From contig CP154954.1 of assembly GCA_039621445.1 (NCBI GenBank), positions 40,107,572-40,171,571 of the forward strand: DNA of 64,000 bases, read 5' to 3'. Below the pieces are notes generated by a model. That model saw nothing but the letters and a program-made list of their open reading frames with translations, did no database searches and was not told where the DNA came from. Position 1 is the first letter of the stretch. Each line of letters starts with the position of its first letter. The position numbers and the translations under genes are program-made. Below, in pieces: positions 1 through 64,000 of the stretch. Source of the stretch: Euglena gracilis. Lineage: Eukaryota.

Positions 1-375
1 CTCTTCCAGCCAATCCTTTCAGCAAAGATCCAAATGTGGACCCGTCCCAAGAATAAGATCCCCTTAATGTCCATTGGAATTTTCAAATCAAAATAAAATG
101 TGGGATACGGTACTGCTCTGATGGTATGTGCACTCCATTTGTGTGCGTGTGGCAAAGGTTCTTTGGATCAACACCAACTGATTACAAAGCTGTAGCTTAA
201 GTTTTCACTGTATCCTGCTGCTTTAACTTTTGGGAACCTGTCTGTCCCCACCAATTGTTTTGGCCAAGTTTTTGGAAAGAGCAGGATGAAACGTCCATGA
301 CAGATTTACGATTGGCCCCCAAACTTGGCCCACACACAGGGAATGGGAAAGAAGGGAAAAAGAAAAGCATACCCG

Positions 376-790
376 CCCCCCCCCCCGGGCAATTGTCGCG
401 CAACAAATCGGACAGCACGGAGGGGGGTGACAATTTCCCAGGGTGACAATTTGGCCAGCACAGAGGGGGGTGACAATTGCCCGGGGGCGTCAATTGCCCG
501 GGGACGTCAATTGCCCACCCATGTAGGCCACATTAAATCCAAATGACCAAGAACACCATCTGAAACACCAGTGAACCCGCAAAAATGCAGCTATGGTTGT
601 GATATTGTGCAGAGCATTTGGTGAGGATCAATCGAGCCGTGCCGGCGAAAAGAAAGTTCACAAACATCTTCTGTGGGGGGGGGGGTGACAAATTGGGCAG
701 CACAGAGGGGGGTGACAATTTCCTGGGGTGACAAATTGGCCGGCACAGCCAGGGGTGACAATTGCCCGGGGGCGTCAATTGCCCGGGGGG
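376..790. repeat. Two copies (376-519, 674-790) of a GGGGTGACAATT / CAATTGCCCGGGG repeat element
   Basis: Near-identical blocks CAGCACAGAGGGGGGTGACAATT..GACAATTGCCCGGGGGCGTCAATTGCCCGGGG. Confidence 0.8.
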
Positions 791-2525
791 GGGGAGGGCG
801 GGTATGGTGTTGATCCTGCTGATCGTCTCCCCTCCAAATGAGCACGGTGCACAGCACTACAGGGGAAAAAAATGACGTTGGGCCGTGGAGGTGCACTCAA
901 AAGGCATCTCCTTTTTCTAAAAAAAAAATGTCATGAACGTTGCCTTTTGGCGGTCGTCCATGCATGAAAGGCATACTTAGACTACCCGCCAGCTTGGGCG
1001 GGACACAATCGCTGATGCAATATTTCAGAGTGACCACTCAACAAATCACCAAATATTAAACTCCCACCACACAATAAAAATGATCCCCCCCACCTGGAAA
1101 CCTCCATTTGAACTCAAAACAATTGAAAACCTCACAATGATTCAATCAAAAAGAGAAGCTCATTTGCAGAAGAACTGCCAGCACAAGATGTGACCAAAAA
1201 CCTTACGAAAAACTGGCTTTTTTGAAAAAATTCTGAGGCACCAAAAAAAAAAACCTGCGCAACAAATAGACCAGGGGTGAAATTGCAGCAAAAAATTGCA
1301 GTGGAGGGGGGGTTGTAAAAAGTTGCAAACGGGCCATGCCGGGGTTGCCAGGGGGTGAACACCTCTGCAGGGGGGAACGGTGAAAGAACGACAGGGGATT
1401 GTTTTAAAAACGTGAGGTCAAGTGGAGGTGACTCAGGCCAGGTCCTTAGTAAAAAAAAAAATGGATGAACGTGGGGTGTCGCCATGCCGGATTACTTAGA
1501 CTCACCCCGAGGGAATTCCCCTACTTTGCGTTGTTCGCTGATTTCGAATGCTTTTGGAGTTGCAGATTCTTCTGCTATTCATTCTTTGCAATATTCATTG
1601 TGAAGTGACCATAACTCACCACAATCAACACCCTCACCGAAACCCATAAAACTCCAAATTAAAAAATGCACAAAAGCATTCATATTCAAAAAATGACGAA
1701 TTTCCTTCCCATCAATTTTTGCCCGGGTGAGGAACCTTGGGTTTAAAATGGGAGGAATCCAATCCATTTGAAAGACCTTCTGTGAATCACTCACATTTGA
1801 AGAAAAAAAAACCTCCGCATAGCTTCTATCATCATTAGCCCAAGAATTTGAGAGCAGCCCAGCAGCCGGTGATTAATGCAGTCAAAAGGGTTCAGAGTGG
1901 TCTAATGCGCCATTGCCAGAGTTGCGGGAACCAAAATGCCAAAATGCGGGAACCAAAAATGGTTGGTGGTGGCCGGGTGCACCCACCACCAACCATAGCA
2001 CTTTGCGACGAAAAACGTTGATATTTTTTTGACCAGAGAATTTCTGAGGCACCAAAAGAATGGAAGGCGTGGGAACCTGCCCCGCCTATCAGGATGGAGT
2101 GGAGGACACCAGTGGCAGGGGAAAAGTGGAAATCTCAGGAAATTCTATGATTCTGCGCTGGTCAATCGGTTCTGACAGGCAAAAAATTGGGCAAAATTTT
2201 GTGGAAGGTGCTCTTTTTAAAAAAAGTTTGCGCAAAACACTGGAAAGAAATACGCACGTTTTGGGGCGTTTCGGGGTTGGCCTGGACCCCCTTGGTGGTC
2301 ATGGGGGTGTGATCTGGACCTTCCTGCAGTCTGCGGGGAAAGCACCAAAACCCTGACCCTCCACCGTTGGCTTTTGGGGAGTCCCAGTCAACCCTGGTGA
2401 TTGCTGAAGGAGGTTTGCTGTGGCAGGTCAGGAAGAGCCTGAGGTCACAGGAATGAAGGTTACGATGCCTTGGGTCAGAGAACATAACAGATGGTGGGCC
2501 TGGAGGAGGGTCTGGTGGTGGGGTC

Positions 2526-3541
2526 CAGGCTTCTGTTTAAGACACCCGGGGGGTCCCCCCACCCACCCGGCCCGGTGCAGAATGGCCCCCCCCCCCCCCC
2601 CCGGGGAGGTGGGGCGTGGGCCAGGCTTTTGCTTAAGGATGGGGGGGGGGCGCTGGCTAGCCATTTACTAGACACTGGAAAAGAGGCACTAGCTAGACCC
2701 CCCTCCCCAGGGGGAGGGGTCCCGAATGGAAAAAAAAATTCATCCGTAGCTCTCCACCATCGGTGGAAATCGGGTGTGAAATGCATTGTTTTTTGGCCAA
2801 TTTGTTCCAGAAAAATCTCAAAGCTGGCCAAAAATGGGCATTTTTGGCCGGTTTTTGGGGTTCAAAATTTTTTCGGCGCTTCACGCCGGTTATTAGAAAG
2901 GGTTTTCCAGCACTGGCCCTGCCAGCGGTCCTCCCAGGTCCCTGAGCATTTCCACTGGCCAATTTGGACTAGCTGTAGTCCGTAGTCCACCCTGGGGGGG
3001 GGGGGGGTACAGTGAACCTTTAAGCAAAAGACAGGCGGGGATACCCCCTAACCATTATCGGGCTGTCTAAGGGTATTTCCCAAAAAAAATTCCGGCGCAT
3101 TGCACTGAGACCCATGTTTGGGCCTCCGACCATACAATTGCTTACCGACCCCGGTGGGGGGGGGGGGTCACTCCACTTTTTTAAAAACCAGTCAGTCACT
3201 CAGAATAAACCAGCCAGCCAGTCATTACCCCTCCCCGGGGGGGGGGGTCGGCCACTCAGAAAAACGGCCACTTTCCAGTCACTTTAGGCCATTGTAGGCC
3301 CAAAAAAAAGTTTCCGCCGCCTTCGGCGGCGGGTTCACTCAAGCCTCTTTTCCCGACTCCTGGCCTACCCCCCCCCGGGGGGGGAGGGGTCCGGGCCAAA
3401 AACCAGTCAGTCACTTTGAAAAAACCAGTCACCCACCCCCCCGGGGGGGGGGGGGGAGGGGTTGGTCAGTGCTTAAGCAATTGCCTGCCTCCGACCCGGG
3501 GGGGGGGGGGTTCCAAATTAAAAAAAAAAAGAAGAAGCCTG
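2526..3541. mobile_element. Nested MITE stack (outer CAGGCTTC element, inner family-C copy 2622-3034, plus a CCAGTCAGTCACT-type repeat)
   Basis: Outer ends CAGGCTTCT / AGAAGCCTG. Flanks GTGGGGTC / GTTGGGTT (6/8). Confidence 0.65.
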
Positions 3542-3686
3542 GTTGGGTTGCCCCTTCGTTCGTTCAACGGTCTCCTTTACCGCATCCCCCCAGCCACCGT
3601 CCTCCCACTGAGGGGCGTTGCCCCCCACACACAGACCCCACCCCACCGGAGGGCGGGGGGGGGGGGAGGAGCGGGGGGGCAGCGGG

Positions 3687-6600
3687 TCAGTAGTCGTCGT
3701 AGAGGACGTCCTCCCAGAAGCTGTTGGGGTTCACCATGCCCACCTTGCGGCTGCAGTTGCCGGCCCCGCCCGGCGGCCGATTGGGTTGGGGGGGCGCCTT
3801 CGGCACGCCGGGCCTCCCGGGGCGTGCCCGGACTTCGATGCCCTCCGCCGGGGGGGGGGGGGTCAGAAAAGCGTGTGAGAAAAAAAGAGAATGGGGGGCA
3901 TGGACGCCGGAACGCCAATTGACCACCACCGGGGGAAACTCGTCCCCCCCCCCCCCCCCCAGGTGCAGGTTGCTCCCGAGCACGTCCAAAGGCAGGCCAA
4001 CCCAGCAGCCGCCCGCCCACCCACAGGGGAACGCATCGCCGCCTCCCGAGGATGAGGCGGCCAGCGGGGGCTGCCGGGCGGGGGACGTGGGCGAAGGTGT
4101 GGCAGTTGTCGGTGCCAGGGATTTTTTTAAGACCAGGGGGGGTCAGCACCCACCCACCCACTCCCTGGGCCCCCCAGGGGGGAGGGGGGAGTTCCAGGGG
4201 GACCCACCCACCTTTGCCCGAAAATGGCCAAAAAAATGGCCAAAATAGCACCTTTTCAAAATTTTCAGCGCCTTTGGCGCCGAAAAAGATATACCCACCA
4301 GCCCCTCCCCCCCCCCCCCCGGGGGCCAAGGGACCCACCCACCCTACCCCCCCCGGGGGGGGGGTCCAAGACTATACCCCTGGTCGGTGTATTGCTTGAA
4401 CTCTGGGTGCTCCATCGCCCAGCACAGCAGCTCTGTAGTGGTGAGGCGCACGTCGGTGGTCGACCTGCAGCATACGGCAAGGGGGGCGTGAGGGGGGTTG
4501 GGGGCTTGGTTGAGGACCACAGTTGGGGGTCAAATCTGCGGGTCTCCGGATTCTGAACATTCTTTGTGCATGTCTTCCAGGGTTGAAGGAGAAGGAGAAG
4601 CAGGGGAAGTCTTATCACCCTTAAATTTTTTTAAAGAATGCGCCCAAAGAGACGGGCCATACCATGTAGCTCACCGTCCCCACCCCCTGCCGCTTGTTCA
4701 CAAATCACCAGCCAGTCACCGCCTTGAAACCAATCAGCAACTTCCACCCCCCCCCCGAAAGGCAGTCACTCCAGCACTCCCACCGACGCATTGATTCAAC
4801 CATATCCACTCATGGCAAATCGGAGTTGGGGTCGTTGGATCTATGTTGAAAGTGTTGAAATGATCCAATTGTCTTGAGATTGAAGAAGGAAGGTACGGGA
4901 TCAGAGTTTAAGGATCCCTGCACCCACCCTTAGGCCCTCTGGGGGGGGGGGGGGGCTGTGCGGGGGTGATCACCCCCCACGCACCACAGCACCCTGGAAG
5001 GAAAATTCCTTCGACACGGAAGGAAAATATTGAGCTAAAAAACCGGTGCCCCCAGAATGGTGGAACGTCGTGGGTTGCCCCTGCACACATGCACATCCGG
5101 TTGGTTGTGCCGCACACGGTGGCACACTGTGCACGTCCAAGCAAAAGGTGTGCCGTGCTGGAAATCCAACACGCAATCCTCTCCGAAACACTGCGCCAGT
5201 ACTCGGGGTGAACGGCTGTTCCAAAACGTTCGGGTGTGTTCCGGGGCGCAGTGGAAGAGCTCGCCTTTGACGAAGAGGGGTTGAATCCATAACAGAAGGC
5301 TTGGTGGCAGGGGAGCCACCCATGGGTTTAGAGAATCCCTGTATAACCCTGGGGGGTCAACTTTGGGGCCCAAAAAAAAATGGCGCTTTGCACCGAAATT
5401 AGAGGAACCCCCCCCCTCCGGGTAGCACCTGCCCCCCCCCCCGTGAGGCAGGGAAAAATTCAACCTCCCTGAGCTAAGAGAGTCTCTGCATGCCATGAAT
5501 ATTGATAGGAAAGGTTTGATCAAAATTGGTCATGTGAAGGACCAAACTGCCAGTCCACACTCGCAGCTCCGGAATCCATGGCAAGCACGGCGTGGCACAC
5601 TGGACGAGGTGCGGCGCTTTGCGTTGCGACAGCCGGCCGGGCCCAAACCATTTGCCCCGGCTGCGAACGGCATCATCCTGCCCGGCAAAAAGAATGCACA
5701 GAAACCACCGCAGCGAAAACAAAGAACTTATTGAGACCATGGCTGGCTTCTGCTCAAATGAAGCAGAATGAAGAGAAGGAAGGGTGTCCCCCCACCCCAC
5801 CTAAACAATGGCGGTCTGGGTCTGGGTGGGTAACTGGTTTTCGGCCCAATGCAAAGTCTCAGGCCGAAAATGAAAGTGCCATTTTGGGAGGGGGAGGGGG
5901 GCAGCTGGCTGACCCCTTGGGGAGTCCACCCAGCTGCAATGGACCCTGAGCTCAACAGAATCCATAGCTGACCCATGGCTCATTTTCGCAATTTCAGCTG
6001 GAGCAGGAGGGCCCACTGCGGCATGATATCTTGCTGATCGATCCAACGGAAATTTCCGAAATGTGAAAAGCGCCGGAAGGAAAAACTTGAACTGTTTTGG
6101 GGGGTCAGGTACCCTCCGCGTCGGTCCGGACCCCCTTGGCAGGTGGGGGGGGGGGGGCGGACACCCCCCCCGGTCTGGAGGGAGGGACACCTCCCACCTA
6201 AACCTCGCACACACCTTTTCCTTTTTTCGAACCCCCCTGCCTCTCGGCCGAATTAGGTTCCATTTTTTGACAAAAGACGAGCTGTTCGGCAACAGTGCAT
6301 CTATTCAGCTTTGAGTAAAGTTTCAAAACTTTCCATTTGATCAAGGGAAAGAAGAAGCTACGCAATCCGATGAACGCATTAACAAAGCAAATTCCTTAGC
6401 AGAAGAGGGTTGAAAGTTCTAGTAGTAGGTGTTAAAAAAAAAACTGAAAATAAATCAACAAACCTGGGGAATTGCGAAAAACGCCTCGGCAACAACATAC
6501 AGGCAACGTGCCCCCCAAACAAACAGCCAAATACCACAACAACAAGGAAAATAAATTCTCACTTTGTCAAGAAAGGATGTGTTGTCTTTCCTTTTTCGGC

Positions 6601-9600
6601 CATTTTCGGCTGAAATTGGCTGCGTACGTGCCCAAAAAACGAGCGATCTGCCCCGGCTAGAGGTCGGCGATCCTTTACCTAATTGTTGCGAAGGGCGCCG
6701 GGCAGACAGACGCAATTTGGCCTGCGGCGGGCGTGCGTAAAACGCAGCAGTTACCGCCCGGGAGGCGCAAAATAGCACGTTGGTAACGGACTCCCCAAAA
6801 AACGTCATATTTCAGCCATTTTCGGCCGAAATTGGCTGCGTCGGCACTCCAAAAACGAGCGCTCTGCCCCTGGTACGAGCCTTGGGCCACCTTCTCGGGG
6901 CCAACGGGGCAATGATCCAGCGCATCTTCCACAAAAGCATTGTGGAAGATGGCAGGTGTAGCACGCTGCATCTGAACCAACGGGGAAAAGAATGATATCG
7001 GTCGGAGGATAACCAAACAGGCTTCTTTTTGAGACCCCGGAGGGGGGTCCCCTATGCAACCGGCCTGGCACGGGCCCGCGGGGGGGGAGGGAGAGCACCC
7101 AGAAAAATCGGGCTGTCTAAAGGCATTTCCCCAAAAAGATTTTGGTGCTTTGCACCCAAAACCATACTCGGGCCTCCGGCCCCGGTCCCCCCAGGGAGTG
7201 TCAGGTCCCAGACACATCCACCCCCTGGGAAGCCTTCCAAGTTAAAAAGAAGCCCTTTAACTACATTCCAAGGCTGGTGGCAGGCACACTTTTGCTTCAA
7301 CCTGGGCAGAGAGCGGAAGCCACACGTGTCTCACAGAAGCCACACATCTCAGCTCACAGATGGCAAATCTCTCTCCCATTCCTACACTTCTCATTTTCCC
7401 AACAAAGTCCTTCAGCGGGTGTTAGGGTCCCAAGTGAGCCGTGAACACGGGGGTGCCCGTGGAAATCGGTGGGGGTGGGGGGCACATCGGGCAGACCTTC
7501 CGCTTGAAGCGGGAGATGGCCACGCCGTCCCGCCACTTCTCCAGCACGTACATCCACGTCTCCGTCTCCACCAGGATGTACCTGCGCCGCCCGATTCGAA
7601 AGGTCAGCGGCGCTGCCCCCCCCCCCCCGGCGGCTCTCCAACCAATTTGTAACCCATCGGGACAGCCATCGCGATACACTCAAGGACGGCAGCAACGATT
7701 CTTGTAAGCAGGCACGTCGAAAACGTGGAATTTCACGGGTTTCTGCCAGAACCAGGGCACCCGAAAAAAAGAGTCACATCGCCAAAAAAAAACGGAATGA
7801 GGAGCCTCACAAGCTTGCTGGTGGATACGCGCTGAATAATAACACACAGGAAGTGAAACACATACGGGTGAATGATCGGCAGGATGGGCCGGGGCTTGAT
7901 TGTCTCCTCGTACAGTGCCACGCTTTTGATGGGCTCATCCCGGTAGCGGAGGTTCATGAAATCCACCCCCCACACACCTGGGCAGGGGAAGATCACAATA
8001 AACATGAGCACATACCTGACGTTGCTCTAAAGAGAGAGATGGCATTGCTGTTTCACTGAGACAGTTGAGAATGGTGAAATAAATCTGTTGTTTGGAATGG
8101 CACCAATTGGCCTCTCCGCTTTTTTCTTTCTTCGACTGTTGGAGCACCGAACATCTGCGCCGGGAATCAGTTCAACATCGCTTCCCTTTCTGTTGGGATT
8201 ACAACAGCAATATCCATTCAACCCAATCCTTAAGATGCAAGATGGTGAAGGAAAAAAATATATTTCCCCCCATTAATTTCCAAAGCGTTTCAAGTTTCCA
8301 TCTTTGTTCCATTTCCATTTGTAGGCTGCAGCAATTGAGTAGTTTTGTCGTTGCAATTATTGCCTCCAACGTCATCATCCCCAACAGTGCCGTGCAAATT
8401 TTGTAAAAACACGCAAGCGGGAACACCTTCTGTGATGGTAAAGAAAATATCAGCTTCATACATCAACTTAATACTTATTTATTTTACCCCCGTGCTGCAA
8501 GAAACCGTTCACCAAGGGCTAGAGGCACCTGGAGACATCGTAAAAACGTGCATTGTGCGCGTTCTGCATGCTTGAGCAGATGGTATAAGAACCTGCAATT
8601 TCCCTTCTTTTGCTGGGAAGAAATTTATAATTTATAAAACTGTGATCAAATGGAATCTATTCAGGGTAAACCACCCCCCAAATAAACTGGCAGGTACCTT
8701 GCTCCTGGCGGTGGCCGAAAAACCTGGGCGGGGAGGTGGGGGGGGGGTGAAAAAAGGTGGTTCCAATAACTTGTCACCCCCCCTTTTTCCGGCAAGTTCC
8801 TTTCCTTTTCCGACCGCTTGAAAAAAGCCAATGGCCCTCGCCAGGGGGGGGGGGCGGCAATGTGGATGTTCATCGTAGTACCTCAGGTAGCCTGGAGCCA
8901 CAAAAGTCAATGCTCCTCCTCCCGCCGGAAGCAATTTCAGCAAGGGGCACGGGAGGGGATCAGAAAAAAAGAAAGGGAAGAAAAGGGGCGTCCAAAACTC
9001 AACTCGGGGAACAACCCCCTTTGTTACAACTCAGGGTGAAATGAATTACTGTGGGTCCCCTGGGAAGACAAATCGGGGTGGGCTTTCTTAGACACTGCAA
9101 ACATGCGCGAACCTACCACACGGAAAAGTATGCCCTGCCGGGAATCAGCGGAAAAAGCAAAAAAACAAAATATTGAAAATAAAAAAAGATAGGGAAAAAA
9201 ACGGAAAAAAGCAAAAGCGTCAAAAATTCCATACGTAAAAAAGCTGATACAAAAATGTCCCAGAATCACAAAAAAAAAGTTGTCAAAAATTGAAAAATGG
9301 AAAAAAACACGCCAACAAAACACTCTCACAATGGCAGAACAGAAAAGCATCATGCGCCCAAAACCTTCACCAAAAAAACAACACCATACCATCAATTTCT
9401 GAGATAAAAAAGAGTGAAAAAAAATCTAACTTCAAAAATTTCCACAAATGAAAAGCACAACACACAAAATGGCCAAAAACAAAACCTTCTGTAAATTAAA
9501 AAAAAATCACAAAAATAACAAAAAAAAAACAACCCCAAAAACCATAAGTGTGGCAAAAAATTGGTTCCGCGCTGTGAGGCAACAAGAAAAAACGGACGCC

Positions 9601-12404
9601 AGGGGGGAGGGGGGAAAAAAGACCCCACAAAAAACAAATAACCCTACCGCGTCACCCCCCGCCCGCCCCCATTGAAAAAAAAAACAGAAAAAGCACCCCG
9701 GCCCCCTTGCCCACCTCAAACCCACCCCCAAAACCTCGGTGCATCCCAGCCCCCACATCGTTGGCCCACCGCCCGCCGGGCCGGCGGTTTTACCCTGGTT
9801 GCCCATTCCCCCCCCCCGACACCCCGAAAAAAAAAGCCGGGGGGGGGGTAAGGCTCCCCAGAACCCAAGCGACCACCATACACCGACCCGAAGATCTCCT
9901 CTCGTCGAGCTGCGCCTCGGTGTCGCTGTCCGCGTCCTTCCCCTCGCCCCCCTCTGCCCGCCGCTGCCTCCGCCGCTGCTGGTCCGCCTCCGTCAGCTCC
10001 CGCAGCCGGTCCCGCACATGCTACGGGGGGGGGGGGGGCAGGCCCTGCCACCCCACAGGTGGGAGTCCCCGGCCTCGGGGGAAGGCTGTGCCACGGGGAA
10101 GGCCACAAACAAGTTTCCACCTTTGTTTCAACCTCAGAGGTGCACGGGAAAACTGGGGGGGGGTCGGACCCACCACCCACCCACCGCCCATCGGGTTTCG
10201 GGATTTCCCGTACAGCCCTGCCCTACACCTACCTACCCAACACTGCCTCACAGGCCAGCGCCGCCCCACACCTGGGCCACCGGGACGGTCGCCTCCGGCC
10301 CCTCCGTCACCGCCTTGCGGCAGAACTTTGCGCCGGCGGCGCTGCCGAGGTACCGCCGCTTCGCCCAGAAGATGACGCAGCCCCCCGCCACGATCTGCGG
10401 GGGGGGGGGCGGAGGGGCGCGGGGAGGGGGGGGGGGGCATCATTGTGCTTGCAGCTGTTCCTGGGACGCCACACACATGCAAATGAGCATTCGAGCAAAA
10501 AAAAAAGAGGCTCCAAAATCCACCCACACGTCAACAAACTGCAAAACGCTGTGTCGAGGAGGAAGGCCATGTCCACAAAAAATGATTTGTCACCGTTCCA
10601 ACAGGCAGAAATTGCAAGCTCTGCCAATTGTGTCGTTTCGTTAACCAGGTTTTGAATCGGGCTGAGCTCTTTGTTATCAAAAGCAACACGCCCGGCGGTG
10701 CGGCCCTGCAGAACGGCCACAGGGATGTATGGGAAGCCTTGGGGGGACCCCCTCCCAATAGAGGGGGGTGGGTCAGACCCCCCTCAAACCTCGAGACTGA
10801 AGGGGGCCAGGAAAATTTTCGATTTTGTGGACTGGGAAAGGGCGGATACCAGGCCAAAATTGGTATAAAAAAATCGGTGATTTTTCTTTGAAAATAAATT
10901 AAAAAAAATGCTCATTTTTCAAAAGTTTAGAACACTTTTTATGTGGGAAACACCAAAACATCAAAAATTCTGCAATATCCTCAAAAGTGAGGAAAAACAC
11001 TTTTTTGCTCACTTTCCGGCGCTGTGTGCCGGAAAAGAAAATTTGCTACTTTTGGAACCTGCCAGGGGGGGTGGGGGTCCAGACCCCCCCCCCACCTGCC
11101 TCAAAACCAAAGGGCTTCCCATCGATCCCTGCCTGGAGTGGCCTGGCAGTCCGGCCCGGCCCCACCCGGCCCGGCCCGACTACTCAGCGGAAAAATTGAT
11201 TCATTGACCCAAAAACGGCCGAGAATGGCAGAGATGGAGGGCTGCAGCACTGTTTTGCAGCGTAAACGTGCCGTATCTCGGGCCAAGTGCTTCATTTGAC
11301 GTTTCAAACGTTTTCTTTCATTTTGCGTAATTTTCGAGATATTTTGAGAATTGTGTGTTTTTTTTAGCCCATTTTCACCAAAAAACCGGACCAAAAACGG
11401 TCGAAAAACACAGCAAAAAAAAAACGGGGCTGTGGGCCAGCTATGCAGCTTCCAGGAAATCCAGGTATGGTTGGATAGGGCGTTGCACATGTTTGAATTT
11501 TTCTGTTGGGCCCTCTTTGCGACTCAGCAGCCATGGGGAGTTACTTCAAAATATGTAGTTTCTGGCTGGCAGAGAGACCCTGTTTTATAGTCCCTTTTTT
11601 GGACCTCGGCCTGTCAAAATGGGAATATCTCGTGTGGGTACAAAATTAGGATGACAAAAGGGTATCTCTGGATGCGAGGGACCGTGGGGATATTTTTCTC
11701 CAAGAAAAGTTCCCGGGGTGGGAGTCGGTTCACACCGGGAATCTTGGTTCTCCCGAGGTGGCCCCGAGAGGGGGGGGGTCAAAAGGGCCCCATGATAAGC
11801 TCTGCTCGGACATGAGCTTAGCGACCCCTCCCATATGATTGTCATCCCTACAGACTGTACGGCAAAACAATAAAAAACATTTTGGGCGAAAATGAGTGTC
11901 ATTTGGGGAAGGATCCTATTTTGTGTACACCGCATTGCCGCATTGCAAACATATTTTTCAGGATTTGGGATTTAAGCCCAGTCCCCTACACAACAAAGAC
12001 CGACAAATTACCTCTGCTGAACAAATTCAGTGCAATTCTCCCAAAATAGTACACACGAATCAGCATTGTCCACTACCAGAAAGCATGGATCACACAAACC
12101 CGGACTCGGGTTGATTATTTGGGTGGGTTTAGGGAGGGTCGCTCTGGTCCCCACTTCGCAACCTGTTTCGCCACAGAAATCCAACAGGTGGAGACGAAGA
12201 GTTGCGATGCAGCCAGGTCAGCAAACATAATTTCCGGTCAACACCGACTGCACTTGCACATACCACAGCACACCAACACCAGGATTAGGGGGAGAAAAGA
12301 TCAGAGGCACTGCCCACAGATAACGGCAAAACCCCTGCAAATCAGCGCAGTCCCGTCCCCGGGGGCAACCCATCGCAAAGGCGCACCTCGACGCCGCCAA
12401 ACAT
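3687..12404 (-). CDS. Multi-exon gene, ~240 aa, permuted papain-like/NlpC-P60 (PPPDE/LRAT-like) putative cysteine hydrolase
   Basis: Exons: 12387-12404, 10272-10394, 9888-10020, 7866-7977, 7497-7581, 5601-5677, 4386-4464, 4087-4110, 3687-3758 (723 nt, all phases consistent). Six GT-AG introns and two stem-defined introns. The C-terminal part reads ...PIIHPYILVETETWMYVLEKWRDG...ELLCWAMEHPEFKQYTDNCHTFAHNCSRK...DDY*, a His-before-NC layout typical of permuted papain-like enzymes. The first exon (MFGGVE) is the least certain. Confidence 0.72.
3759..4086 (-). other. Non-canonical ('intermediate', GT start but no AG) stem-defined intron
   Basis: The +4 arm CCCCGCCCGGCAGCC pairs 14/15 with GGCCGCCGGGCGGGG ending at -6. 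Junctions are C|G...C|A. Removal joins FAH|NCSRK in frame with the terminal exon. Confidence 0.75.
4111..4385 (-). other. Non-canonical intron formed by a MITE (4116-4382) with an 8-bp TSD
   Basis: Reads C|GAC CAGGG...CCCTG GCACC|GAC. Flanks on the + strand are GTCGGTGC (4108-4115) and GTCGGTGT (4383-4390). The 275-nt length is frame-breaking. Removal restores KQYT|DNCHTF. The body is colinear with MITEs at 20168-20430 and ~56270-56524. Confidence 0.88.
7018..7257. mobile_element. Degenerate CAGGCTTCTTTTT-ended MITE
   Basis: Ends CAGGCTTCTTTTT / AAAAAGAAGCC. Flanks TAACCAAA / TAACTACA. Confidence 0.55.
10720..11131. mobile_element. MITE (family E)
   Basis: TIR CAGGGATnnATGGGAAGCC at both ends. 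Related copies at 61489-62021 and ~45653-46000. The TSD is not preserved here. Confidence 0.75.
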
Positions 12405-14651
12405 CCCACCGCCGGAGGTCACGCTGGGCTGCCTCGTGGCATAAGGGGAGCCGGAGCTGAAGGGGCAGGCGGAGGGCTTCCGGTGCGGCAGCCGGGTTGG
12501 TCCAACCGGTCAGACAACTGAGGCCGGCCCCAGGCGTCCGGAGGGCAGTTGCAGCCTCAGTCAGGCGACACTGGACGGCAACGCCGCAGTTGGGGGGGGG
12601 GGTCCGGTCCTATTTTTGGATTTTTTCTCCACTGACCCGGGCCCGGAAAAGACGTCAATTTTCAGGTTCCCAAAAACACCAAAGTTTTTCCTTTGGCGCT
12701 TCGCCCCACATGTATGTAAATTAGTGCAAGTTCAAATTTACTATTTTTTTGCACTTCAAACATCTAAAAATTTTGAATTTCAACACTTGTTGTTAATGAA
12801 ATTGGGGTTTTTGGTAATTTGCAGGAAAAGTTTCACCCTCCCCGGCGCTTTGCACTGCCGGGGGGTCTCAATTTTTTGGGGTGGGGCATTAAACCCCTCC
12901 CCCCAAACAACCTGGCGGGGTGCCAGTTATTGGAACCAACTTTTGACCCTGCCCCCCCCCTGCCAGGTTTTTTGGGCCCTTTTTTTTCAGCGTCGTAAAG
13001 GAACTTTGCCTGAAAAAGGGGAGTGCCAAGTTACTAGAAGAATATTTTTTGCCCCTCCCTCCACCAGATTATGGGGGGGGGGGGGCGGGTTTATTTGGGG
13101 GGTTGAGGGATTGTGTGTTCAAGGAAATGAAATGTGCCAAGGAAAAAGAAGTCTTTCATTGTCAATTGCTGCCAAATAAGCAATCGGCTACTTTACCAGC
13201 TGCATTTTTTTTAAATCCAAAGGATTGTCTGTCATTTTTTTGCTTGCCATTTTGTTCGCAATAGAACTGGCACTTCAATGTCTTTTGGCACATTAAAATG
13301 AAGAGAAAAGCATGCCCTCCTGCAAAACGAAGCAGCGTTCATTTGCATTTGCAGAGAGGTGCAAACTTTAATTGAACTTGACGTGTGTTTCTCAAGGAAA
13401 TGAAGGTTTTGAACATCAAAGCATAAATTGCCGAGGGCATTTAAAAAGCATGATATGAGCACCGCTGGCTATGTATTGCTGGCCACCTAAACCCTTGAAG
13501 GATACAAAACTTGTGAGCGACGAGGGGTGCTTTCGTGGGCTCAAAAGAGGTCTTTGCTCAAAGAGGTCAAAAGCGAGTCTTTGCCATCGAGCACAATTGG
13601 TTTTAATCAATTTGTTTTGCCAGGAACCTTTGACATTTCGACTGATGATTGAAATCCTGCTGAACCAACGGACGTGTTTATCAGTGTTCGGGTGGAATCT
13701 GAATTTTGAAGTGAATCACAAACAGACGGGCGATAATCATGAAGCTTGAAAATTTGGGAAGGTTTAAAACTGCCACACAAAAACATGTATTTAAAAATTG
13801 TACAAGACGGATGAGAATCGGAAATTACATGGGGAAAGAAGGTTGCGGAGCCGTATCCAGCGCTGTGGAAAGGAGTCACTCCGCTCCAGCAGGCCCGAGA
13901 CACTTTACTGTACAGACGATTCGCCCGGGGTGCGTGCTGCCAGTGGTCACGGGGAGAAGACGGGCAGCAGCAAATAAGGGGTTGTGCCACGGGAGAGGGC
14001 AGAGGGCCCGGAGAGGGTAACAGAGTGTACTGGGCCACGAGACAACTGCATGTGCAGGCAGAGCAGGGCAGGCAGAGCAGGGCAGCACAATGGAGCGGCA
14101 CAGGCCGCGAGCTGCCAAAAATGCAGAGCGCTGCGGACTTACGGAACGCTCCTGTCGATCCTGTTTGATGGGCGACGGCACTCACCTGAGGGGGTGGGGG
14201 GAGGGGGGTCAGACACAAATGCATGTGCGTGAGCAAGAGGGTGGGGGTATGGCTGGGGTGGTCAGATGATGGCGTTGGCGCCAGGGTAGTTGAAGGAAGA
14301 ACAGCGGGGAACACAGCGGGAGATGGAGACAGAAATTGAAGGGTTGGACGTTGCAGAGACGAGCTGCTTTCAGCAATTTGATTCGATCAATGCACCCCCA
14401 AAATAGCAGAGTGGGGTCCAAAAATGTACACGAGCAGGTAGCTAAAAGGGCACCCCCCTTCCACGGAGCGTACGTCCAACGATGACATCGCCCCCCCCCC
14501 CCACCGACAAACCAAGAGAGGTGAATCCCAGTGGCAAACATTCCATGTCAAACAAAGCTCTTTGACCTTTCCTCCAAACAAAGCAGATCTATTGTGTTGG
14601 ATGAGGGAAAGGCATGCAATGTACACTGCAGTTCAAACAAAGTGCCCCCCC

Positions 14652-14778
14652 CAGGGTTCGATATAAGGACAGGTGGGGGGGGGTGGTCCGGACCCCCCCC
14701 TGCGGGCCAGGAGGGGGGGGGGGTGGGGGGGACACCCCCCCACCTAAACCATATACGCCCTCCTTATATCGAACCCTG
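14652..14778. mobile_element. Short internally deleted family-B MITE
   Basis: Same 18-bp TIR as 48634-49034. Flanks GCCCCCCC / CCCCCCCC. Confidence 0.82.
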
Positions 14779-14902
14779 CCCCCCCCCCTCCGGTTGGAAG
14801 CGTCGGTCCACCAAAAAGACGCCCTCCACCGTGGGAGGGGGAGGGGGAGGGAGAGGGTTGTGGCAAGCTGAGTGCGCAGCATGGCCTACCTGCCTGCCTC
14901 CG

Positions 14903-15617
14903 CTACCCCTCAACGCTGCCTTCCGGCGCTGCCCAGGCCCAAGCCGGCCCATCCGGCGTGGTGAGGGCAGCCCCAGGGCACTGAGAGACCCCATGGCTGG
15001 GACCCATGGCCGGCGTTTGGCGTCAAAGAAGACACTTGTGATGCCCTTTAGCACAATTTCCAGCGTGCATCTTCCGTTCATCCCCTGGGGCGGCGGGGGG
15101 GGGGGGGGGCTTCTTCCCAAACTCCCCCACCCACTTTTTTTCTCTTAAAAAAAACAACAACCCCATGCACAACCCCAGAGGGGGGGGGGTCCACCCATCC
15201 ACCGTGAACTGGGAAAAAACCCAAGGGGGGTCCTTTGGAAAATCCAACACCCACTCACCACCTATCCAAACCCCACCCAAAATCGGCCAAAAGGGCATAG
15301 AAAAAATCAAGCTGGATTTTCTGCCCAGCCTTCGGCCGCAGCGGACTAACCCATGTCACCCCAACACCTGGTGGGGGGTAGCGGCCCCAACCACCCGCCC
15401 ACTCTCAAAACCCGCCAGGGGAGAGGTCAGTACACTTTGAGTGAATCTGTGTTCCCAGCATGGCTGATCCATATCAAGCACAAGCCCCAGTGCTCTGTGT
15501 GTGTTTTCGAGCACGTTCGAGGAGGCTCGAGAGCCTCCTCCTACGGAGCCAACTCCTACCGTAACCCTGCTGCTGACATTTGGCTTTGCTGTATATTTGC
15601 TGTATATAACAACCCAA

Positions 15618-15651
<34 letters not shown>

Positions 15652-15844
15652 ATGGATGGATGGATGGATGGATGGATGGATGGATGGATGGATGGATGGA
15701 TGGATGGATGGATGGATGGATGGATGGATGGATGGATGGATGGATGGATGGATGGATGGATGGATGGATGGATGGATGGATGGATGGATGGATGGATGGA
15801 TGGATGGATAGATGGATGGATGGATGGATGGATGGATAGATGTG

Positions 15845-18800: not shown

Positions 18801-21800
18801 CGCCGGAGGCGGTCGCCGGATGGACGGCAAACGCGGCATTTCAACAGTTGTTCTTTCCCCCAAAAATTGCAATGCTCCCACAAAGCCCAGGTGGGGTCGT
18901 TCCGTCCGGCCCACACATCCCGAAGACCGCTTGCCAATGGTGGACTTGGTGTGGAACAAAACCTGCACCCAATGTACGGTTTCGCTTTTGAACGTCAGGC
19001 ACTGGCATATTTTGGGGTTGCCCCCGGGGACCGAGCAGAGCAGCCAGTTGTTGTCCTCCGGGTGGGGCACTGCCACGCCGCTCCACGACACAGCCTGCTG
19101 GCGCAGCGACGTCAGCGTGAACGTCCACACCTGCGGCGGGCCAGAGAATGCCCCAGGAAACAATGAGGCCTGCCATGACTTGAACCCCACAGTGACACAT
19201 CCAAACGGTGCCACCTTTTTGCAGCTGCCCATGCTTATGCTGGGCAGGGGAAAAAATGTTTTGTGAGCAGCCATGGGGAACGATGAAGGCGTTTGAAATG
19301 GAGGCACATGGAACAGGCCGAAATTACAACCCCGGAGGGGAGGAGGGGGATCCCAGCCCAAAAATGGCCTTTTCTGGGCTTCCGGCTCCTTGGCCAAGTG
19401 CCCAGGCACTTTGGCCATGTACCCCCCCCCTTGGTTGCACTAACAGCGCTAGCTTCACTTCTGGCCCAGTTTGCTGTGTGGTGAGTGGCCAGGTGCCCCT
19501 TACACCAGTGCTCTTGTGTTGCTCCACCAGGCCGGGTGAGCAACTCTGGTCCTCATGTCCTGAGGAAAGGCAAGGGGAAGGCCTGAAGCATCAAAGGCCC
19601 CAGGAGGGGGAGAACCCAGCAAAGCCAAGCCCAGAAAGAATCAGGGCCAGCAGGCCCCCTCTGCCCAGGAAGGGCAAGCCAGACCCAAGATTGATCTGGG
19701 GAGAGAGCCCCCAGCTGAGCCAAGGGAAAAGGGTAAGTCCTCAGCTGACCGCTGCCCGGATGTCATCTCCAGACTGGCAAGGGCTTCTGGAAGGAGTGGC
19801 ATGGCCCTCACCACATTCCCCCCCAGAGCAGTGGGTGAAAGGCATCATTCAGGGGCTGGAATTCAGAGAACTGGCATGGCAGGGAGTGCCATTGTTGCGG
19901 AGATTGAGGAAATGTCTGCCATGGTGGCAGAAAAATGACACCCAGTGGGTGGTATCCCTGATTCAAAATGGGGTTCAGCCAGACCACCCCTTACCCCAGT
20001 TTCTGTCAAGACAGCAACAAAAGTCAGCTCAGGAAATCAGCCTGGCTTCAGAAATCCTGAAGGGGGTACCAAGAAAGTGGGGCAACCAAGAAATTGGAAA
20101 CTGCCACAGGGACTGTCCACTTGGTACCCTGGTTTGTGTTGTCAAAACCAGAAGGAGACCACCCCACCAGGGGGTTTTTTTAAGACTGGGGAGGAGGGCC
20201 CCTCCCACCCACCTACCCCCCTGGGCCCCCGGGGGGGGGGGGGGTCCCGGGGGGGGACCCACAAAAAATCGCGAAAAAAGCTAAAAATAGCGCCTTTTCA
20301 AAAATTTTCGGCCGAAAAAATATATCCCACCCCCCTCTGGGGGGACCCCCCCCCCCCGGGGGGCTGGGGCTCAGCCGGACCCACCCACCCTACCCCCCCC
20401 CCGGGGTCCACGACTAAAAAAAAATCCCTGTCCCCCACACAACCGACAGTGAAACCTCTTGGGTTTGCCAGTCAAGAGACACAAAATTGTCAGATGGAGA
20501 ATCAAACAGGATGCTGGTTATGGTGCCAGAAAATAAGGTCAATGCCAACAGAATAAACCAAAAGATTGCAGCGATTAAAAGCATGCAAAGTCTACCATCA
20601 GACAACCAATTAGGAACGTTGCAAGAACACATAATGACCTGTGAGCTTCAACGCAACACAAACAAATGCAAATTCGGAGTGCAAGAGCCCCCCGAGGCGC
20701 AAACGGTGGCCATCTACGTCCCCGAGGACACACCTCCTCAAACCGGTCGCCGCTCAGCCCCGTGGCCTGCCGGGCCGCCGTCTTCAGGAACTGGCTCGGC
20801 AGGGCGGCCCGGGCCAGCGGCGCCCCCCGCGCCAGCTGCCCGCACGCGTTGTCCACCAGGTGGGCCAGCACGCTGCCGCCAGGGCCGGCGGGGGGGGGGG
20901 GGTGGCCGTGCCGTCGAGGGGGACTGCTCCGAGCAGTTCGGCAGCAACGCGGGAAACGGTGGGTGTGAGTTGACCCGCCGATCCAAACGCAGAGGAGGGG
21001 ACCCTGTGCCTGCCCCGCCCGGCCCTGCCCCTCCATCGCCAGCTCACTGTCCTCCGCGAGGGCCGCGTCGGGCAGGCAGGGGAGCTTGTCTTGGAACGGC
21101 CCCAGGGCCCCGGCCACGGGGCCCGGCCCGCCCCTGGCGACGGAGGAGCCCCCACAGAAGCCGCGGCGGGCGTTGACGGCGCCGCCCGACCGACCCGGTA
21201 GTACTTGCCGGGAAGAAATGGGACCGTCAGGGGGGGCCCCACCACCCATCCCCCACGCGGCCACCGGGATCCCCATCCAGCCCTGCCCCGAGGGCCTGGG
21301 GCCAGGGGAGGGAGAGGATCCAAATGGCGTGGGTCCGGCAAATGCGTGGGACGGCCCCGCCCCGCCCCAGCCCATGTGCCGGGGAGCGGGGCTGAAGCGG
21401 AGGGAGGCCGGGCCAAAAGGGGAAAATGGGCCAAACCGTACACAGTAAACACGGGATGGTGTTGCTGTCAGAAGGGAAAAAATTCGGCATTTTCATGGGA
21501 ATGTGCGGAACCCGCACGCACAACCCTCGAACCCTCGGGGTTTTGGGATCCAGTGGGGTGGAGGGCTGGGGGGGGTGATTTTTTGTGGCGGTTTTAATGT
21601 GTTTTGAGGTAATAGTCTGTAACTAGCCCAAGGCTATTGTGTCCAAAAAATGTATTTTTTTGTCCCACTAGAGGTGTAAACCACAGATTTTGTTATAACC
21701 AAAGGAGGGGGAGGGGGGGTCCCCCCAGGCGGGGGGGGTCAGGGGGAAGAAAATCCCCCCTCGTAAGGTGTCAGGTAAGGTGGGGTGCCTTGCCTGACCA

Positions 21801-23399: not shown

Positions 23400-26300
23400 C
23401 TACATCTACATCTGCATCTATATCTATATGTTGCTCTTTTTAAAAAAAATCATTCACCCTTTGGCAAAAGGTTGGGGGCTGCTTTGGGCGGGGCCTGGCC
23501 GACTACAACATGTATCATCATGGACTCACTCAGGGGGGGGGGGGCAGCCAGTCAAAATGGTTGCCTGGGCGGGTCGGGCCCCGGGCACAGCCACCCTCCG
23601 GGGCTGCCCCGGAGCTGCAATAGCGGGGACGGCCCCACCACCAGCCCACGAGGAGGAGGACGAGGCCCAAGGCAGCAGCCCGCCGCCAGGGGAAGCCCCT
23701 TTGAAGGGGGGGGGGGGCGAACACACGCGCTCTTTTTTTGCGGTTTTTTTTGCACTTTTCGTCATGTATAAAACAAAAAATTTAGCGGGTTCTTATGAAT
23801 TTTTGCGGGTTTTTTTTTGTGATTTTTTTGGCGATTTTGCTGGAATTTTTTTATTCTGAAAAACTCCTCATCTTTTGGCTCCAATTTCCCCCCGAGACCA
23901 AAATTCTTGTCATTTTTTTTGTGAATGCTTTTGCATTTTTGGGTCAGAAAGTTGCATATTATTTTGTACAATGAAAACTCCTCCAATGCAGAGGTAAAAA
24001 ATTATCTCCGTCTTCTCCAGCAGACAATGTGCATCCTGGGGGACCTCCTACGGGATTTAACTTGCAACTTGCGTGTTTTTTTTTGCATTTTTGTGTGTTT
24101 TTTTTGTGTCGTGCTTTTCGAGGGTCACTGTTGCATATCCCCCCCGCTTCAAACTACCGGATGTGTGGGAATGGGTGTAAACAGTCACCAGGTATATGTG
24201 TGGATGTGATCAGGTTGTCGGTTTGTCATAATTTGCGGCAAGTGTTTATTCTACCCGAATTAGCAGAATGATGGTAATTTTTAGGTGAAAAGGGGGGGTT
24301 GGGGGCATGATTTTTGTGGCGAAATGTCTCGATGCCCGAAAATTAGCTGTGGCAAAACTGGCAGCCAGTCCCCGGGACAAGGTTTTCTGGGCTTCCCACC
24401 CTCAAGAATATCTGTCAACCCCATCATGGTCTGCTCAGCGGAATGATGGCAAGTTTTAGGAGAAACGAGGGCTTTGGGTTTCTTTGCTTGTAGAATCCCC
24501 CGTGGGATGCTTGATTTGGCGCCCAGAATGAACCCCATATTTGAGGCGCAAAAAACATAGCCCCCCATCAAAATACAAATGCACGGTGTTGATGAGAATC
24601 CATAAAAACGTTGCTTGACATTGATTTTTCATCACCTGCAAATTGGGGCATATTTAAATGTACTCGAAAAACTTTACATGTGGTGCAATCAGGGTTTGAT
24701 GTAAGGACAGGTGGGGGGGGCGGTCCGGACCCCCCTCCTGCGGGCCAGGGGGGGGGGGGGGGGCTGGGGGGGACACCCCCCCCACCTAAACAGTGGCGCG
24801 GTCCGGGTGACCGAAATTTTTTGACCCCCCAAAACGACCAAAAGTGCAATTTTGGGCACTTTTGGGCAAAAATTTGCCAAAAATGCAAAAAAAAATCGAC
24901 GCGAAGCGCCGGAGGAAAAAATTGACCCTGTTGGGGGGGTCCCGGGTACCCCCCCCAGGGACCCCCCCCTGCGGGCCAGGAGGGGGGGGGTGGGGGGACA
25001 CCCCCCACCTAAACCCCGTACGCCCTCCTCATATCAAACCCTGGGTGCAATACTTAGAAAAAACGCAGCCTTTTTCCAATTTTCCAGCCTTTCCCCTGAG
25101 GCACGACTGAACTAAAATTGGCCAAACATGAGGACAAAAGCCTGACCCAGGCCCTATCCATGACGACGGCCCATCCTTTTCTCACTCAGTATCCCGAAAA
25201 AAACATAAATCTGGCAAGTCAGGGATTTTTGGTATACCCGCCCAGACTCGGGTGCCGATTTGTGTTTTGTACTTTCCGGGCCCAAGGTGGCTAATCCCCC
25301 ATCTTAATAGTGGTCCCAAACCTCTGGGGCACTAATGTCAGGCGTCCAATCAGGTTTGTTCAAAATTTCATTTAGGGGTGGGAATATTCAGCGTTACTAC
25401 ACTCAGGAGGGCCTGAAATGGCCATTTCGAGGGGGAGATCAGCAGAGTTGGCCTCGGCCGAAACCAAAGCCGACCCCCCCCCTGTTTTGCTTGCTATGGA
25501 CAGGCAACCCATTGCACAAGCCACCCCCAAAGGGTTCAAAAGAATCTTGGTCCAGACCCCCACCACCTAAACAGACCACAATGACCCATTTTTCAGCCGA
25601 ACAATGTTGACCCCCAAGATTGCCAATTATACAATTTGAGCACCTTTGATGGGATGTTCTTAAATTTGCAAAACTGCCAGCAATTTTTTGGGGTCCAGGT
25701 ACCCCCCCAGGTGAAAGAATAACTCTGGAACTTCCAGCGACTTTGTACTGACAATTACCAAGAAAAAATTCAGCATGACAAATTCAAGCCATTTTTGGCA
25801 TCCTATCATTTTGTATGTGCCTGAGATGCCTTGCTGATGCAGTGTTCGAGGACGTATCTGTGGCCAAACAAATATGATCATCCACACCAGCAGCCAGGAA
25901 CGAATGGTCCATGAACAGCTGCGCTTTACGGCCTTACCGTTTGCTATGAAACTTTCATTTAAGGCAATCAGGGTTTTCAGGAATTTCGGGAAATTTTTTC
26001 TTCCAGTTTATTTAGGCTCGTTTGGGACCTAAATACCTGCCCCCCCCCCTGCCGGCTCCAGTTCCTTTATTTGAAATAAAATCAGCACTGAGGCCCTGTA
26101 ATGACCACACATGCACACCACCAGGGCTTTGTCTGCTCCTGAAAAAAAAGAACCAACAACGAAATCTTTCCTTCCAATAATGCATCTATGCAGGGTGATA
26201 ATCTCACTCTCTGATTTTCACCCCCCCCCCGCACACTTTCTTTTTTGCCACGGCTTCCTCAAACCAGAGTGCAAAGGAGAGGTTCCAAACAAAGTCACCA

Positions 26301-31994: not shown

Positions 31995-58855
<26,861 letters not shown>

Positions 58856-62021: not shown

Positions 62022-62339
62022 GGTGCGTACCTGGGGTACTACCACCCCAGTACCTGTTGTACCTGTACAGGTACTGGGGGGTACACGCAGGTCCTGGGGG
62101 GGGGGTAAGTACCCCCCCACACCGGCGCCGACAAGGCCCATGTTTAAATAGGTACGTACCCCGCCCAGAACCTGTTGTAACCTGTCCAGGTCCTGGGGGG
62201 GTACACGGAGGTCCTGGTGGGGGTACGTACCCCCCCACACCGGCGCCGACGAGGCCTATGTCTAAACAGGTACGTACACCCCCAAATCGTGTTGTACCTA
62301 TACAGGTACACGCAGGTCCTGGGGGGGGAAACACAATTG

Positions 62340-63545: not shown

Positions 63546-64000
63546 TGTGTATCTGTACCTGTACAGGTACATGCAGGTCCTGGGGGGGGGTGCGTACCTG
63601 TTTAGACATAGGCCTTGTTGGCGCCGGTGTGAGGGGGTTGTATCACCCCCCAGTACCTGCTTGTACCAGGTACGCGCCTTGTACCAGGTACGTACCCCCC
63701 AGAACCCCCCCCCACGGCCAGGCTCCCCCCAGGGGGGGGAGGGTCCAGCCTCCGGCTGGAAAAAAGGCTGGCTGGACCCCCAAGGGGACAGGGGGGGGGG
63801 TCCGGGGCTGGAGGCAACTGTGCTGGGCTGGGCTGATGAAAAACAAATTTTTCAAAAACATTTTTGCCTTCTCGAACACAAGTTTATGTGCCAGACATTG
63901 GGGGCGAGGAAGCTGTGATGAGAAAAAAAAATGCAGGGATGGGTGAGCCGGGCAGCCCAATTGGCTGACCAGGCTGGACCAGGCCTCTGGCCAGGCTGGA

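Follow-up and report, generated by a model that had tools for sequence, protein, structure and literature searches.

A 64,000-nt stretch of the Euglena gracilis genome (assembly GCA_039621445.1, contig CP154954.1, positions 40,107,572 to 40,171,571; hereafter the window) carries, on its minus strand, a protein-coding gene interrupted by a short transposon-like element at positions 4116 to 4382. The segment 4111-4385 is very probably a nonconventional intron, composed of a decayed CAG...CTG MITE (miniature inverted-repeat transposable element) and one 8-bp target-site duplication (TSD), and cut at a fixed spacing of 3 nt on one side of the element and 5 nt on the other. The relation between the two spacers and the duplication (3 + 5 = one 8-bp TSD) is well supported. 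The element is removed exactly from the RNA, as had been predicted in an earlier note made from the DNA sequence alone.

Exact removal of the element from the RNA

RNA and DNA sequences were mapped over positions 1-15600 of the window (15.6 of 64 kb). The sets comprised transcript-like contigs presumed to be of RNA origin (X1 and X5), raw RNA-seq reads of the same species amounting to about 5% of the run (X21), and the contigs of a single DNA run (X20), which contain 0.72 of the words. On the plus strand, the element starts with CAGGG at 4116 and ends with CCCTG at 4382, giving a body of 267 bp within a minus-strand coding exon. The joint 4107->4383, which skips 275 nt, was carried by one X1 contig, one X5 contig, and 10 + 8 reads of X21 with 17 starts, and by 0 contigs of the DNA run. 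The junction predicted for the RNA was thus present in two transcript contigs and 18 RNA-seq reads. Since 275 equals 267 + 8, the RNA loses the element and one copy of the 8-mer.

The joint slides by 7 nt, and the skips permitted by the RNA range from 4108-4382 to 4115-4389, with the N3/N5 register (4111-4385) inside this range. Canonical ends (GT-AG, GC-AG, or AT-AC) occur in none of the eight possible cut registers, register 0 having GT..TG on the plus strand. The N3/N5 register makes G the first nucleotide of the acceptor exon. Conventional introns, at joints 4462->5599, 5676->7496, 7578->7863, 10020->10272, and 10394->12387 (CT..AC on the plus strand), are removed from one transcript together with the 275-nt intron.

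The plus-strand flanks of the element, GTCGGTGC (4108-4115) and GTCGGTGT (4383-4390), form a direct repeat with 7 of 8 positions matching, a level of at least 7/8 that was reached in 6 of 3340 shifted-flank comparisons used as a control. Rereading of the sequence confirmed the earlier description of a 267-bp CAGGG...CCCTG element with 7/8 flanks and without GT-AG ends in coding sequence.

Joining of the exons produces an open frame ending ...EFKQYT/DNCHTFAH/NCSRKVG...YDDY and a stop codon (slashes mark the exon junctions). A 242-aa transcriptome protein (P0001; eukprot EG_transcript_16500), retrieved with the unaltered 41-aa exon, is identical to the spliced model, including ...FKQYTDNCHTFAH..., except for two residues and six placeholder positions near 9901. 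All 14 euglenid homologues align without a gap over the junction of the 275-nt intron. F207-K-Q-Y, D212-N-C-H-T, and an upstream H-P-Y are invariant in the 14 homologues, and T211 is nearly so; the element interrupts this invariant motif two codons ahead of the conserved Cys. The match to P0001 and the ungapped motif agree with the claim that excision restores YT/DNCHTF.

Sister elements with 8-bp target-site duplications

A screen of the window for CAG...CTG pairs with an inverted repeat of at least 9/12 yielded 835 pairs, six of which have perfect 8/8 flanking repeats and two further ones 7/8 repeats. The shifted-flank control gave 0 matches of 8/8 in 3340 comparisons, and 20 dinucleotide shuffles gave one perfect-8 case in total. 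Among the 199 pairs with an inverted repeat of at least 10/12, exact flank repeats were found six times at k = 8 and not at all at k = 9 to 12. An inverted-repeat search that was blind to CAG retained 3260 pairs after low-complexity filtering, and the pairs with perfect 8-bp flanks (5 of 5) begin with CAG and finish with CTG. What else this search yielded consists of the same elements in shifted register, artifacts of G/C runs, and a few 5- to 6-bp cases. These observations support the conclusion that the CAG...CTG inverted-repeat elements of this genome make 8-bp TSDs.

The sister elements have terminal inverted repeats (TIRs) matching at 16 to 19 of 20 positions. One of them, 48634-49034, sits within another, 48594-49219, each with its own perfect 8-mer, which indicates insertion at the DNA level and is hard to explain otherwise. 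The elements at 14652, 48634, and 24690 belong to one family with 78 to 96% identity, and 48634-49034 and 14652-14778 are 91 to 96% identical over their aligned parts. In addition, the element 2526-3541 of the host transcript shares 70% identity over 322 bp with the perfect-TSD element 52242-52591. Such occurrence of intronic and perfect-TSD copies in common families counts in favor of a transposon origin. Over 12 elements of the window, TSD position 1 is G in 11, position 8 is C in 7, position 2 is T in 6, and position 7 is A in 5, and CAGG...CCTG termini are found in 11. A metagenome scan with an 18-nt terminal repeat returned eight loci. Allowing up to 4 mismatches, no partner repeat lies within 3 kb of any of them; one locus has a site with 5 mismatches. 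All eight were treated as chance matches.

Relatives and age of the 4116-4382 element

Relatives of the element in the window are the copies at 20168-20430 (E values of 6e-26 to 7e-25) and 56270-56524 (2e-19 to 2e-18). The former is flanked by CACCCCAC and TCCCCCAC, which match at 6 of 8 positions; the latter has a degenerate far end and a flank match of 0/8. Both are colinear, old relatives of 4116-4382 and not near-identical copies. Removal of 20168-20430 (263 bp) plus 8 nt joins two open reading frames (ORFs), 19196-20284 and 20418-21176, into one of 569 codons. ORF 19196-20284, which holds part of the copy, has 26 relatives in a representative protein library (best E value, 8e-21), and a search for homologues of near its own length found no match. 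In one of these relatives (P0019; 1 of 10 scanned), an RVT_1 domain follows just downstream of the part that matches. The ORF interrupted by the 20168-20430 copy may thus be that of a retroelement, and splicing of the copy itself is conceivable. The two copies had been described as free MITEs; their colinearity stands, and their freedom is in doubt, since one lies in a retroelement-like ORF and the other is truncated or degenerate. The weak inverted repeats of 4116-4382 (10/20) and its identity of about 70% to its relatives point to an old copy, and the notion of a transposon caught in a recent event lacks support.

The spacer sum in other nonconventional introns

Sliding of the cut does not alter how many nucleotides are lost outside the CAG...CTG body or outside the terminal stem. 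Among the joints listed, this spacer sum is 8 in all three nonconventional ones (275-267, 488-480, and 328-320). The 488-nt intron in the 3' untranslated region (UTR), 1912-2399, holds an element of 480 bp at 1917-2396, with CAG at +4..6, CTG at -8..-6, a G at the exon start, and flanks matching at 6 of 8 positions. The 328-nt intron, 3759-4086, has an 11-bp terminal stem, CCCCGCCCGGC and its complement, extending from +4 to -6. The sum of 8 and the 8-bp TSDs of the sister elements uphold the equation of 3 + 5 with one duplication, as put forward in the earlier note; the 3/5 split itself is not fixed by the RNA, which allows eight registers, and would follow from published knock-in genetics (PMC12501133).

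A model for matched excision

In the proposed mechanism, the ends of the element would pair in the pre-mRNA (CCAGGG with CCCUGG), and a 6-bp pairing of this kind is possible as read from the sequence of the 4111-4385 intron. A nonconventional pathway that measures from the stem would then cut 3 nt before CAG and 5 nt after CTG, and a purine would begin the next exon. Because 3 + 5 equals the duplication length, the piece removed would be exactly the element and one duplicate, and the pre-insertion reading frame would be restored inside the invariant motif. Because CAG...CTG reads alike on both strands, an insertion with an 8-bp duplication would be erased from the mRNA in either orientation. 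The excised piece would consist of the element and a complete 8-mer. With spacers that differ by 2 nt, the excised intron would carry a 2-nt 3' overhang over an extended helix, the geometry left by RNase III-type enzymes, and G at TSD position 1 with C at position 8 would add a G:C pair adjoining the stem.

We infer that the 4116-4382 copy came by transposition, and the match between the ruler and the duplication length may well be causal; it may account for the odd spacing used by the second splicing system of Euglena. A broader reading, whose prospects we regard as evenly balanced, is that the second splicing system of Euglena is an RNA-level excision matched to one class of DNA transposon. 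CAG...CTG elements with 8-bp duplications would then be born spliceable either way, the circle junction would rebuild the 8-mer, and the 2-nt offset would be an RNase III-like stagger on a helix lengthened by the weakly palindromic target (G...C).

Several observations weigh against matched excision or against parts of it. The inverted repeat of 4116-4382 is weak, with only 10 of 20 terminal positions matching, and the element fails the filter of at least 9/12 used in the pair screen. In the minimum free energy fold of the 4111-4385 intron, the 5' end pairs with an internal CCCCUGGUC and leaves the CCCUG at the terminus unused; compared with shuffled sequences, this fold is not clearly superior (z, -1.87). 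The three related copies in the window, with about 70% identity, offer no evidence of recent mobility of the family. The joint slides by 7 nt, so that eight registers give one mRNA and the exact cut cannot be read from RNA. The nonconventional joints analyzed are three, all of one transcript, among the joints listed, beyond which there are 520 further joints. The stem of 3759-4086 has C-C-C/G-G-G in place of CAG/CTG, and its flanking 8-mers match at 4 of 8 positions. The coordinates of contig pieces and 19 loose letters suggest that 2526-3541 was removed with 9 extra nt (about 1025 nt). Such a loss would mean that the ruler is not strictly 8 and would fit the N6 tolerance of the published code, which itself bears against a strict 8 (PMC12501133). 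No empty site lacking the element was seen in the X20 DNA contigs, which are the sole DNA run and perhaps the source of the assembly. Finally, the window has 78 ORFs with a length of 180 aa or more, and Pfam scans of 4 of these revealed no hAT or other transposase domain.

Alternative origins of the spacing, the flanks, and the transposon

The same anatomy would arise if the ruler came first. A fixed staggered-cut enzyme, RNase III-like or tRNA-endonuclease-like with a ligase, could have set the 3 + 5 spacing, and its match to the TSD would then be a selective filter on exonic elements. The published code has a hard requirement on the donor side and a tolerant acceptor side (5-6) (PMC12501133), introns with the stem at +4/-6 and without CAG/CTG, such as 3759-4086, are also removed, and for the introns of diplonemids and euglenids, a route by RNase III or a ligase has been put forward (PMC12621601). 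However, outside exons, too, the same families with their 8-bp duplications prevail in the window, which gives no sign that other duplication lengths were filtered out, within a sample that at 64 kb is small. We regard this order of events as rather unlikely. It is not exclusive of matched excision, and the causal direction may be either, the TSD having shaped the ruler or the ruler having filtered the TSD. Fixed length argues against scars of double-strand-break repair with captured filler DNA, the interpretation given to the 8-nt repeat at a gapC intron of E. agilis (PMC4770533). Break repair predicts neither repeats of exactly 8 nor constant CAG-starting inverted repeats, multicopy families, and nested insertions with their own 8-mers, and it is improbable here. 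Even less probable is spread at the RNA level, in which excised circles would insert anew through reverse splicing and reverse transcription, the 8 nt being carried spacers instead of duplicated target. Nonconventional introns are indeed released as full-length circles (Guminska et al. 2021, cited through PMC11282704 and PMC12621601), but carried spacers would be uniform within a family, whereas every copy has a locus-specific 8-mer on both sides, and copies also occur in places other than exons, for instance within another element or within a conventional intron.

The superfamily of these transposons is a separate question. hAT elements have termini of the type (C/T)A(A/G)NG, 8-bp duplications, and the target nTnnnnAn. 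The CAG termini and 8-bp duplications of the window elements follow this pattern, and T at position 2 (6/12) and A at position 7 (5/12) fit the target weakly. The CAGGG families fit the terminal motif, and the CAGGC and CAGAC families fit its first three or four bases. A hAT-like transposon is accordingly suggested, and another superfamily with 8-bp TSDs, such as Merlin, P, or an undescribed one, is a real if lesser possibility. Two Merlin families with 8-bp TSDs are known from E. gracilis (Lopes et al. 2021; PMC8101967), and a literature search on hAT in this species yielded only that paper. The scan of 4 of the 78 ORFs, which was without a hAT transposase, also leaves room for such an assignment. 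However, the Merlin repeats end in 5'-GG-3' (PMC8101967), whereas the 8-mers of the window directly adjoin CA...TG, and the terminal GG of Merlin is absent from the window elements. Of the hAT assignment made in the earlier note, the 8-bp TSD was retained; no transposase was seen in the four ORFs, and the TSD length is shared with Merlin.

Comparison with known systems and published work

The 275-nt intron resembles the euglenid nonconventional introns described previously (Milanowski et al. 2014, 2016; PMC12501133). Like them, it is without GT-AG in any register, is removed alongside conventional introns, and is slidable owing to its direct repeats; if cut in the one fitting register of eight, it would also agree with the CAG/CTG code and with a purine exon start, and its ends may pair. 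It differs in being tied to a multicopy inverted-repeat family with sisters that have perfect 8-bp duplications. The code N3-CDG...CH'G-N5-6, followed by R at the exon start, was defined by knock-ins (Nomura et al. 2025; PMC12501133). The same paper reports junction direct repeats ("slidable") for 84.4% of introns and suggests a MITE-like source. Its main text contains neither "TSD" nor "hAT" by term search, and "target site" occurs once, for the knock-in site; the main text thus draws no relation between the spacers and a duplication length.

A MITE origin was proposed by Milanowski et al. in 2014, when no euglenid transposable element was known (PMC3935182). A gapC intron of E. agilis that is new and strain-specific was reported in 2016 to have a direct repeat of 8 nt, which was ascribed to break repair (Milanowski et al. 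2016; PMC4770533). A 2024 review describes the CAG/CTG at +4..6/-8..-6 as TIRs and the repeats at the junctions as TSD-like (PMC11282704). The E. gracilis logos of Gao et al. (2024) show CCAGG at +3..+7 and CCTG at -9..-6 (PMC11170887), and they agree with the CAGG...CCTG termini that 11 of the 12 window elements have and with the frequent C at TSD position 8. No paper found in the literature search sets the 3 + 5 spacers equal to an 8-bp TSD or places these introns in hAT, supplements and subscription papers being outside the reach of that search. Earlier publications cover the MITE origin, the N3/N5-6 code, TSD-like repeats, and one repeat of 8 nt (among others PMC11282704 and PMC4770533), and the novelty implied in the earlier note was overrated. 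The explicit link between 3 + 5 and the TSD is the added value, and the intron itself is a euglenid nonconventional intron of long-suspected MITE origin.

Transposons that behave as introns are known from other organisms. The maize element Ds is said to have been described as a de novo intron by Giroux et al. in 1994. As in hAT MITEs and maize Ds, 8-bp duplications and CAG-starting inverted repeats are found here, and exonic insertions are tolerated through RNA processing. Ds is removed imprecisely at cryptic spliceosomal sites, whereas removal of the Euglena element is exact, and no hAT transposase has been linked to it. Merlin of E. gracilis shares the 8-bp duplications and differs by its GG termini, as opposed to CA...TG (PMC8101967). 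The introners of Micromonas and Aureococcus are likewise short nonautonomous transposons in exons that are removed with one duplication copy so that the frame is restored (PMC11282704). Introners, however, are spliceosomal: of their two splice sites, a GT/GC or AG comes from the element and its partner from the duplication, whereas no splice-site dinucleotide is used here, and a stem and fixed spacers would define the cuts. In the part of the window covered by RNA (15.6 of 64 kb), one copy of the 4116-4382 family is spliced; two further spliced CAG/CTG elements belong to other families, and for one of them (2526-3541) splicing is suggested by the coordinates of contig pieces. In Fritillaria borealis and Amoebophrya, too, introns without GT-AG are abundant, and their inverted repeats and duplications point to a MITE origin (PMC11282704). 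An adapted spliceosome is thought to remove them, whereas the euglenid introns are apparently spliceosome independent and are released as circles, according to the same review (PMC11282704).

Host gene and other features of the window

The coordinates of the features are compiled in Table 1. The 242-aa protein encoded by the host gene is conserved, and its His and Asn-Cys-His motifs are invariant. Pfam scans of single exons and of P0001 gave no family above the cutoff. One homologue carries the UniRef name PPPDE-domain protein, and feature look-alikes agree (scores of 0.90 to 0.95); the PPPDE-like label is taken as a lead only. At 9883-9906 on the minus strand, the transcript contigs hold 18 letters that are absent from both sides of the joint 7978->9901, and P0001 reads QLEEEEIFGS where the window DNA gives QLDE and then a shifted frame. 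In a GAG run there, the window and the transcript seem to differ by a single base and also by a substitution, which could reflect an allele, a paralogue, or an assembly error. A micro-exon at this joint was considered and rejected, most of the 18 letters matching the DNA adjoining 9901 with a one-base shift. The X1 and X5 transcript contigs end at 12457 on the minus strand, with the loose letters GAAAAAAAA on the plus strand (TTTTTTTTC in the sense direction), which we take to resemble the 3' end of the Euglena spliced leader. The host mRNA is probably trans-spliced at 12457.

Table 1. Coordinates of the intron, its element, related elements, and host exons in the window
Feature	Position	Strand	Remarks
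Nonconventional intron in 3' UTR, 488 nt	1912..2399	-	Joint 1911->2400, slides by 5
CAGGC...GCCTG element in 3' UTR, 1016 bp	2526..3541	-	6/8 flank repeat
Last coding segment, NCSRKVG...YDDY, then stop codon	3688..3758	-	
Nonconventional intron, 328 nt	3759..4086	-	Sense ends GT..GC; joint 3758->4087, slides by 1
Coding exon, 24 nt, DNCHTFAH with invariant Cys	4087..4110	-	Between two nonconventional introns
Sense-3' (downstream) copy of 8-bp duplication	4108..4115	-	Sense GCACCGAC
Nonconventional intron, 275 nt (very probable assignment)	4111..4385	-	Drawn in N3-CAG...CTG-N5 register; joint 4107->4383
MITE-like element body, 267 bp, CAGGG...CCCTG	4116..4382	-	Decayed copy
Sense-5' (upstream) copy of 8-bp duplication	4383..4390	-	Sense ACACCGAC
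Coding exon ending ...EFKQYT	4386..4464	-	Upstream intron 4465-5600 conventional GT-AG
Member of 48634 family, 127 bp	14652..14778		7/8 TSD; inside conventional intron (14184-14887 region)
Family copy, CAGGG/CCCTG ends	20168..20430	+	69% identical to 4116-4382 over 277 columns
CAG...CTG element	24690..25043		Perfect 8-bp TSD GGTGCAAT
CAGGC...GCCTG element	36703..37030		7/8 TSD
CAG...CTG element, 77 bp	40742..40818		TIR 19/20; perfect 8-bp TSD GTCCAGCG
CAG...CTG element	47884..48404		Perfect 8-bp TSD GCCAGCAG
CAG...CTG element, host of nested insertion	48594..49219		Perfect 8-bp TSD GTGGCCAA
Nested CAG...CTG element	48634..49034		Perfect 8-bp TSD GGACCCTC
CAG...CTG element	52242..52591		Perfect 8-bp TSD GTTGAGAC
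Family copy, one end intact (CAGGGG...)	56270..56524	-	73% identical to 4116-4382 over 173 columns

A different inverted-repeat pair (13/13, starting with ATGTCTAAACAGG) spans 62258-63609 and has the 6-bp flank repeat AGGCCT; it may represent another transposon class with a different duplication length. ORF 39499-40167 on the minus strand has a weak IBR match (PF22605; E value, 7e-4, below the cutoff), which suggests an RBR-type ubiquitin ligase gene, and the upstream part of this gene may contain the 40742-40818 element. Hundreds of RNA-seq reads end in long poly-C or poly-G at genomic G/C runs at 2584-2602, 3943, 14731, and 15109. These homopolymer runs are also internal parts of MITE-like elements, and the loose ends may be read-through artifacts or reflect length-variable runs. 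Simple-repeat or strongly skewed stretches occupy 15648-15809, 32569-33657, and 52000-54400, with long homopolymeric-codon ORFs at about 33 kb and a GC skew of 0.52 at 52-54 kb and of 0.32/-0.29 at 32-36 kb.

Implications for the nonconventional introns of Euglena

In the literature consulted on euglenid nonconventional introns, the MITE origin is still called a hypothesis and the mechanism of removal is described as unknown. The locus studied here combines a spliced transposon copy and its duplication with perfect-TSD sisters, a nested insertion, and three nonconventional joints at which 8 nt beyond the element are lost. The MITE-origin hypothesis thereby gains predictions that can be counted, namely, flank identity versus element age, a peak of duplication length, and the sequence of the circle junction. 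The search for the enzyme is narrowed to an activity that takes its measure from a stem and has a stagger of 2 nt. If true, excision matched to a transposon with 8-bp duplications would explain the roughly 70% nonconventional introns of Euglena, most of which are "slidable."

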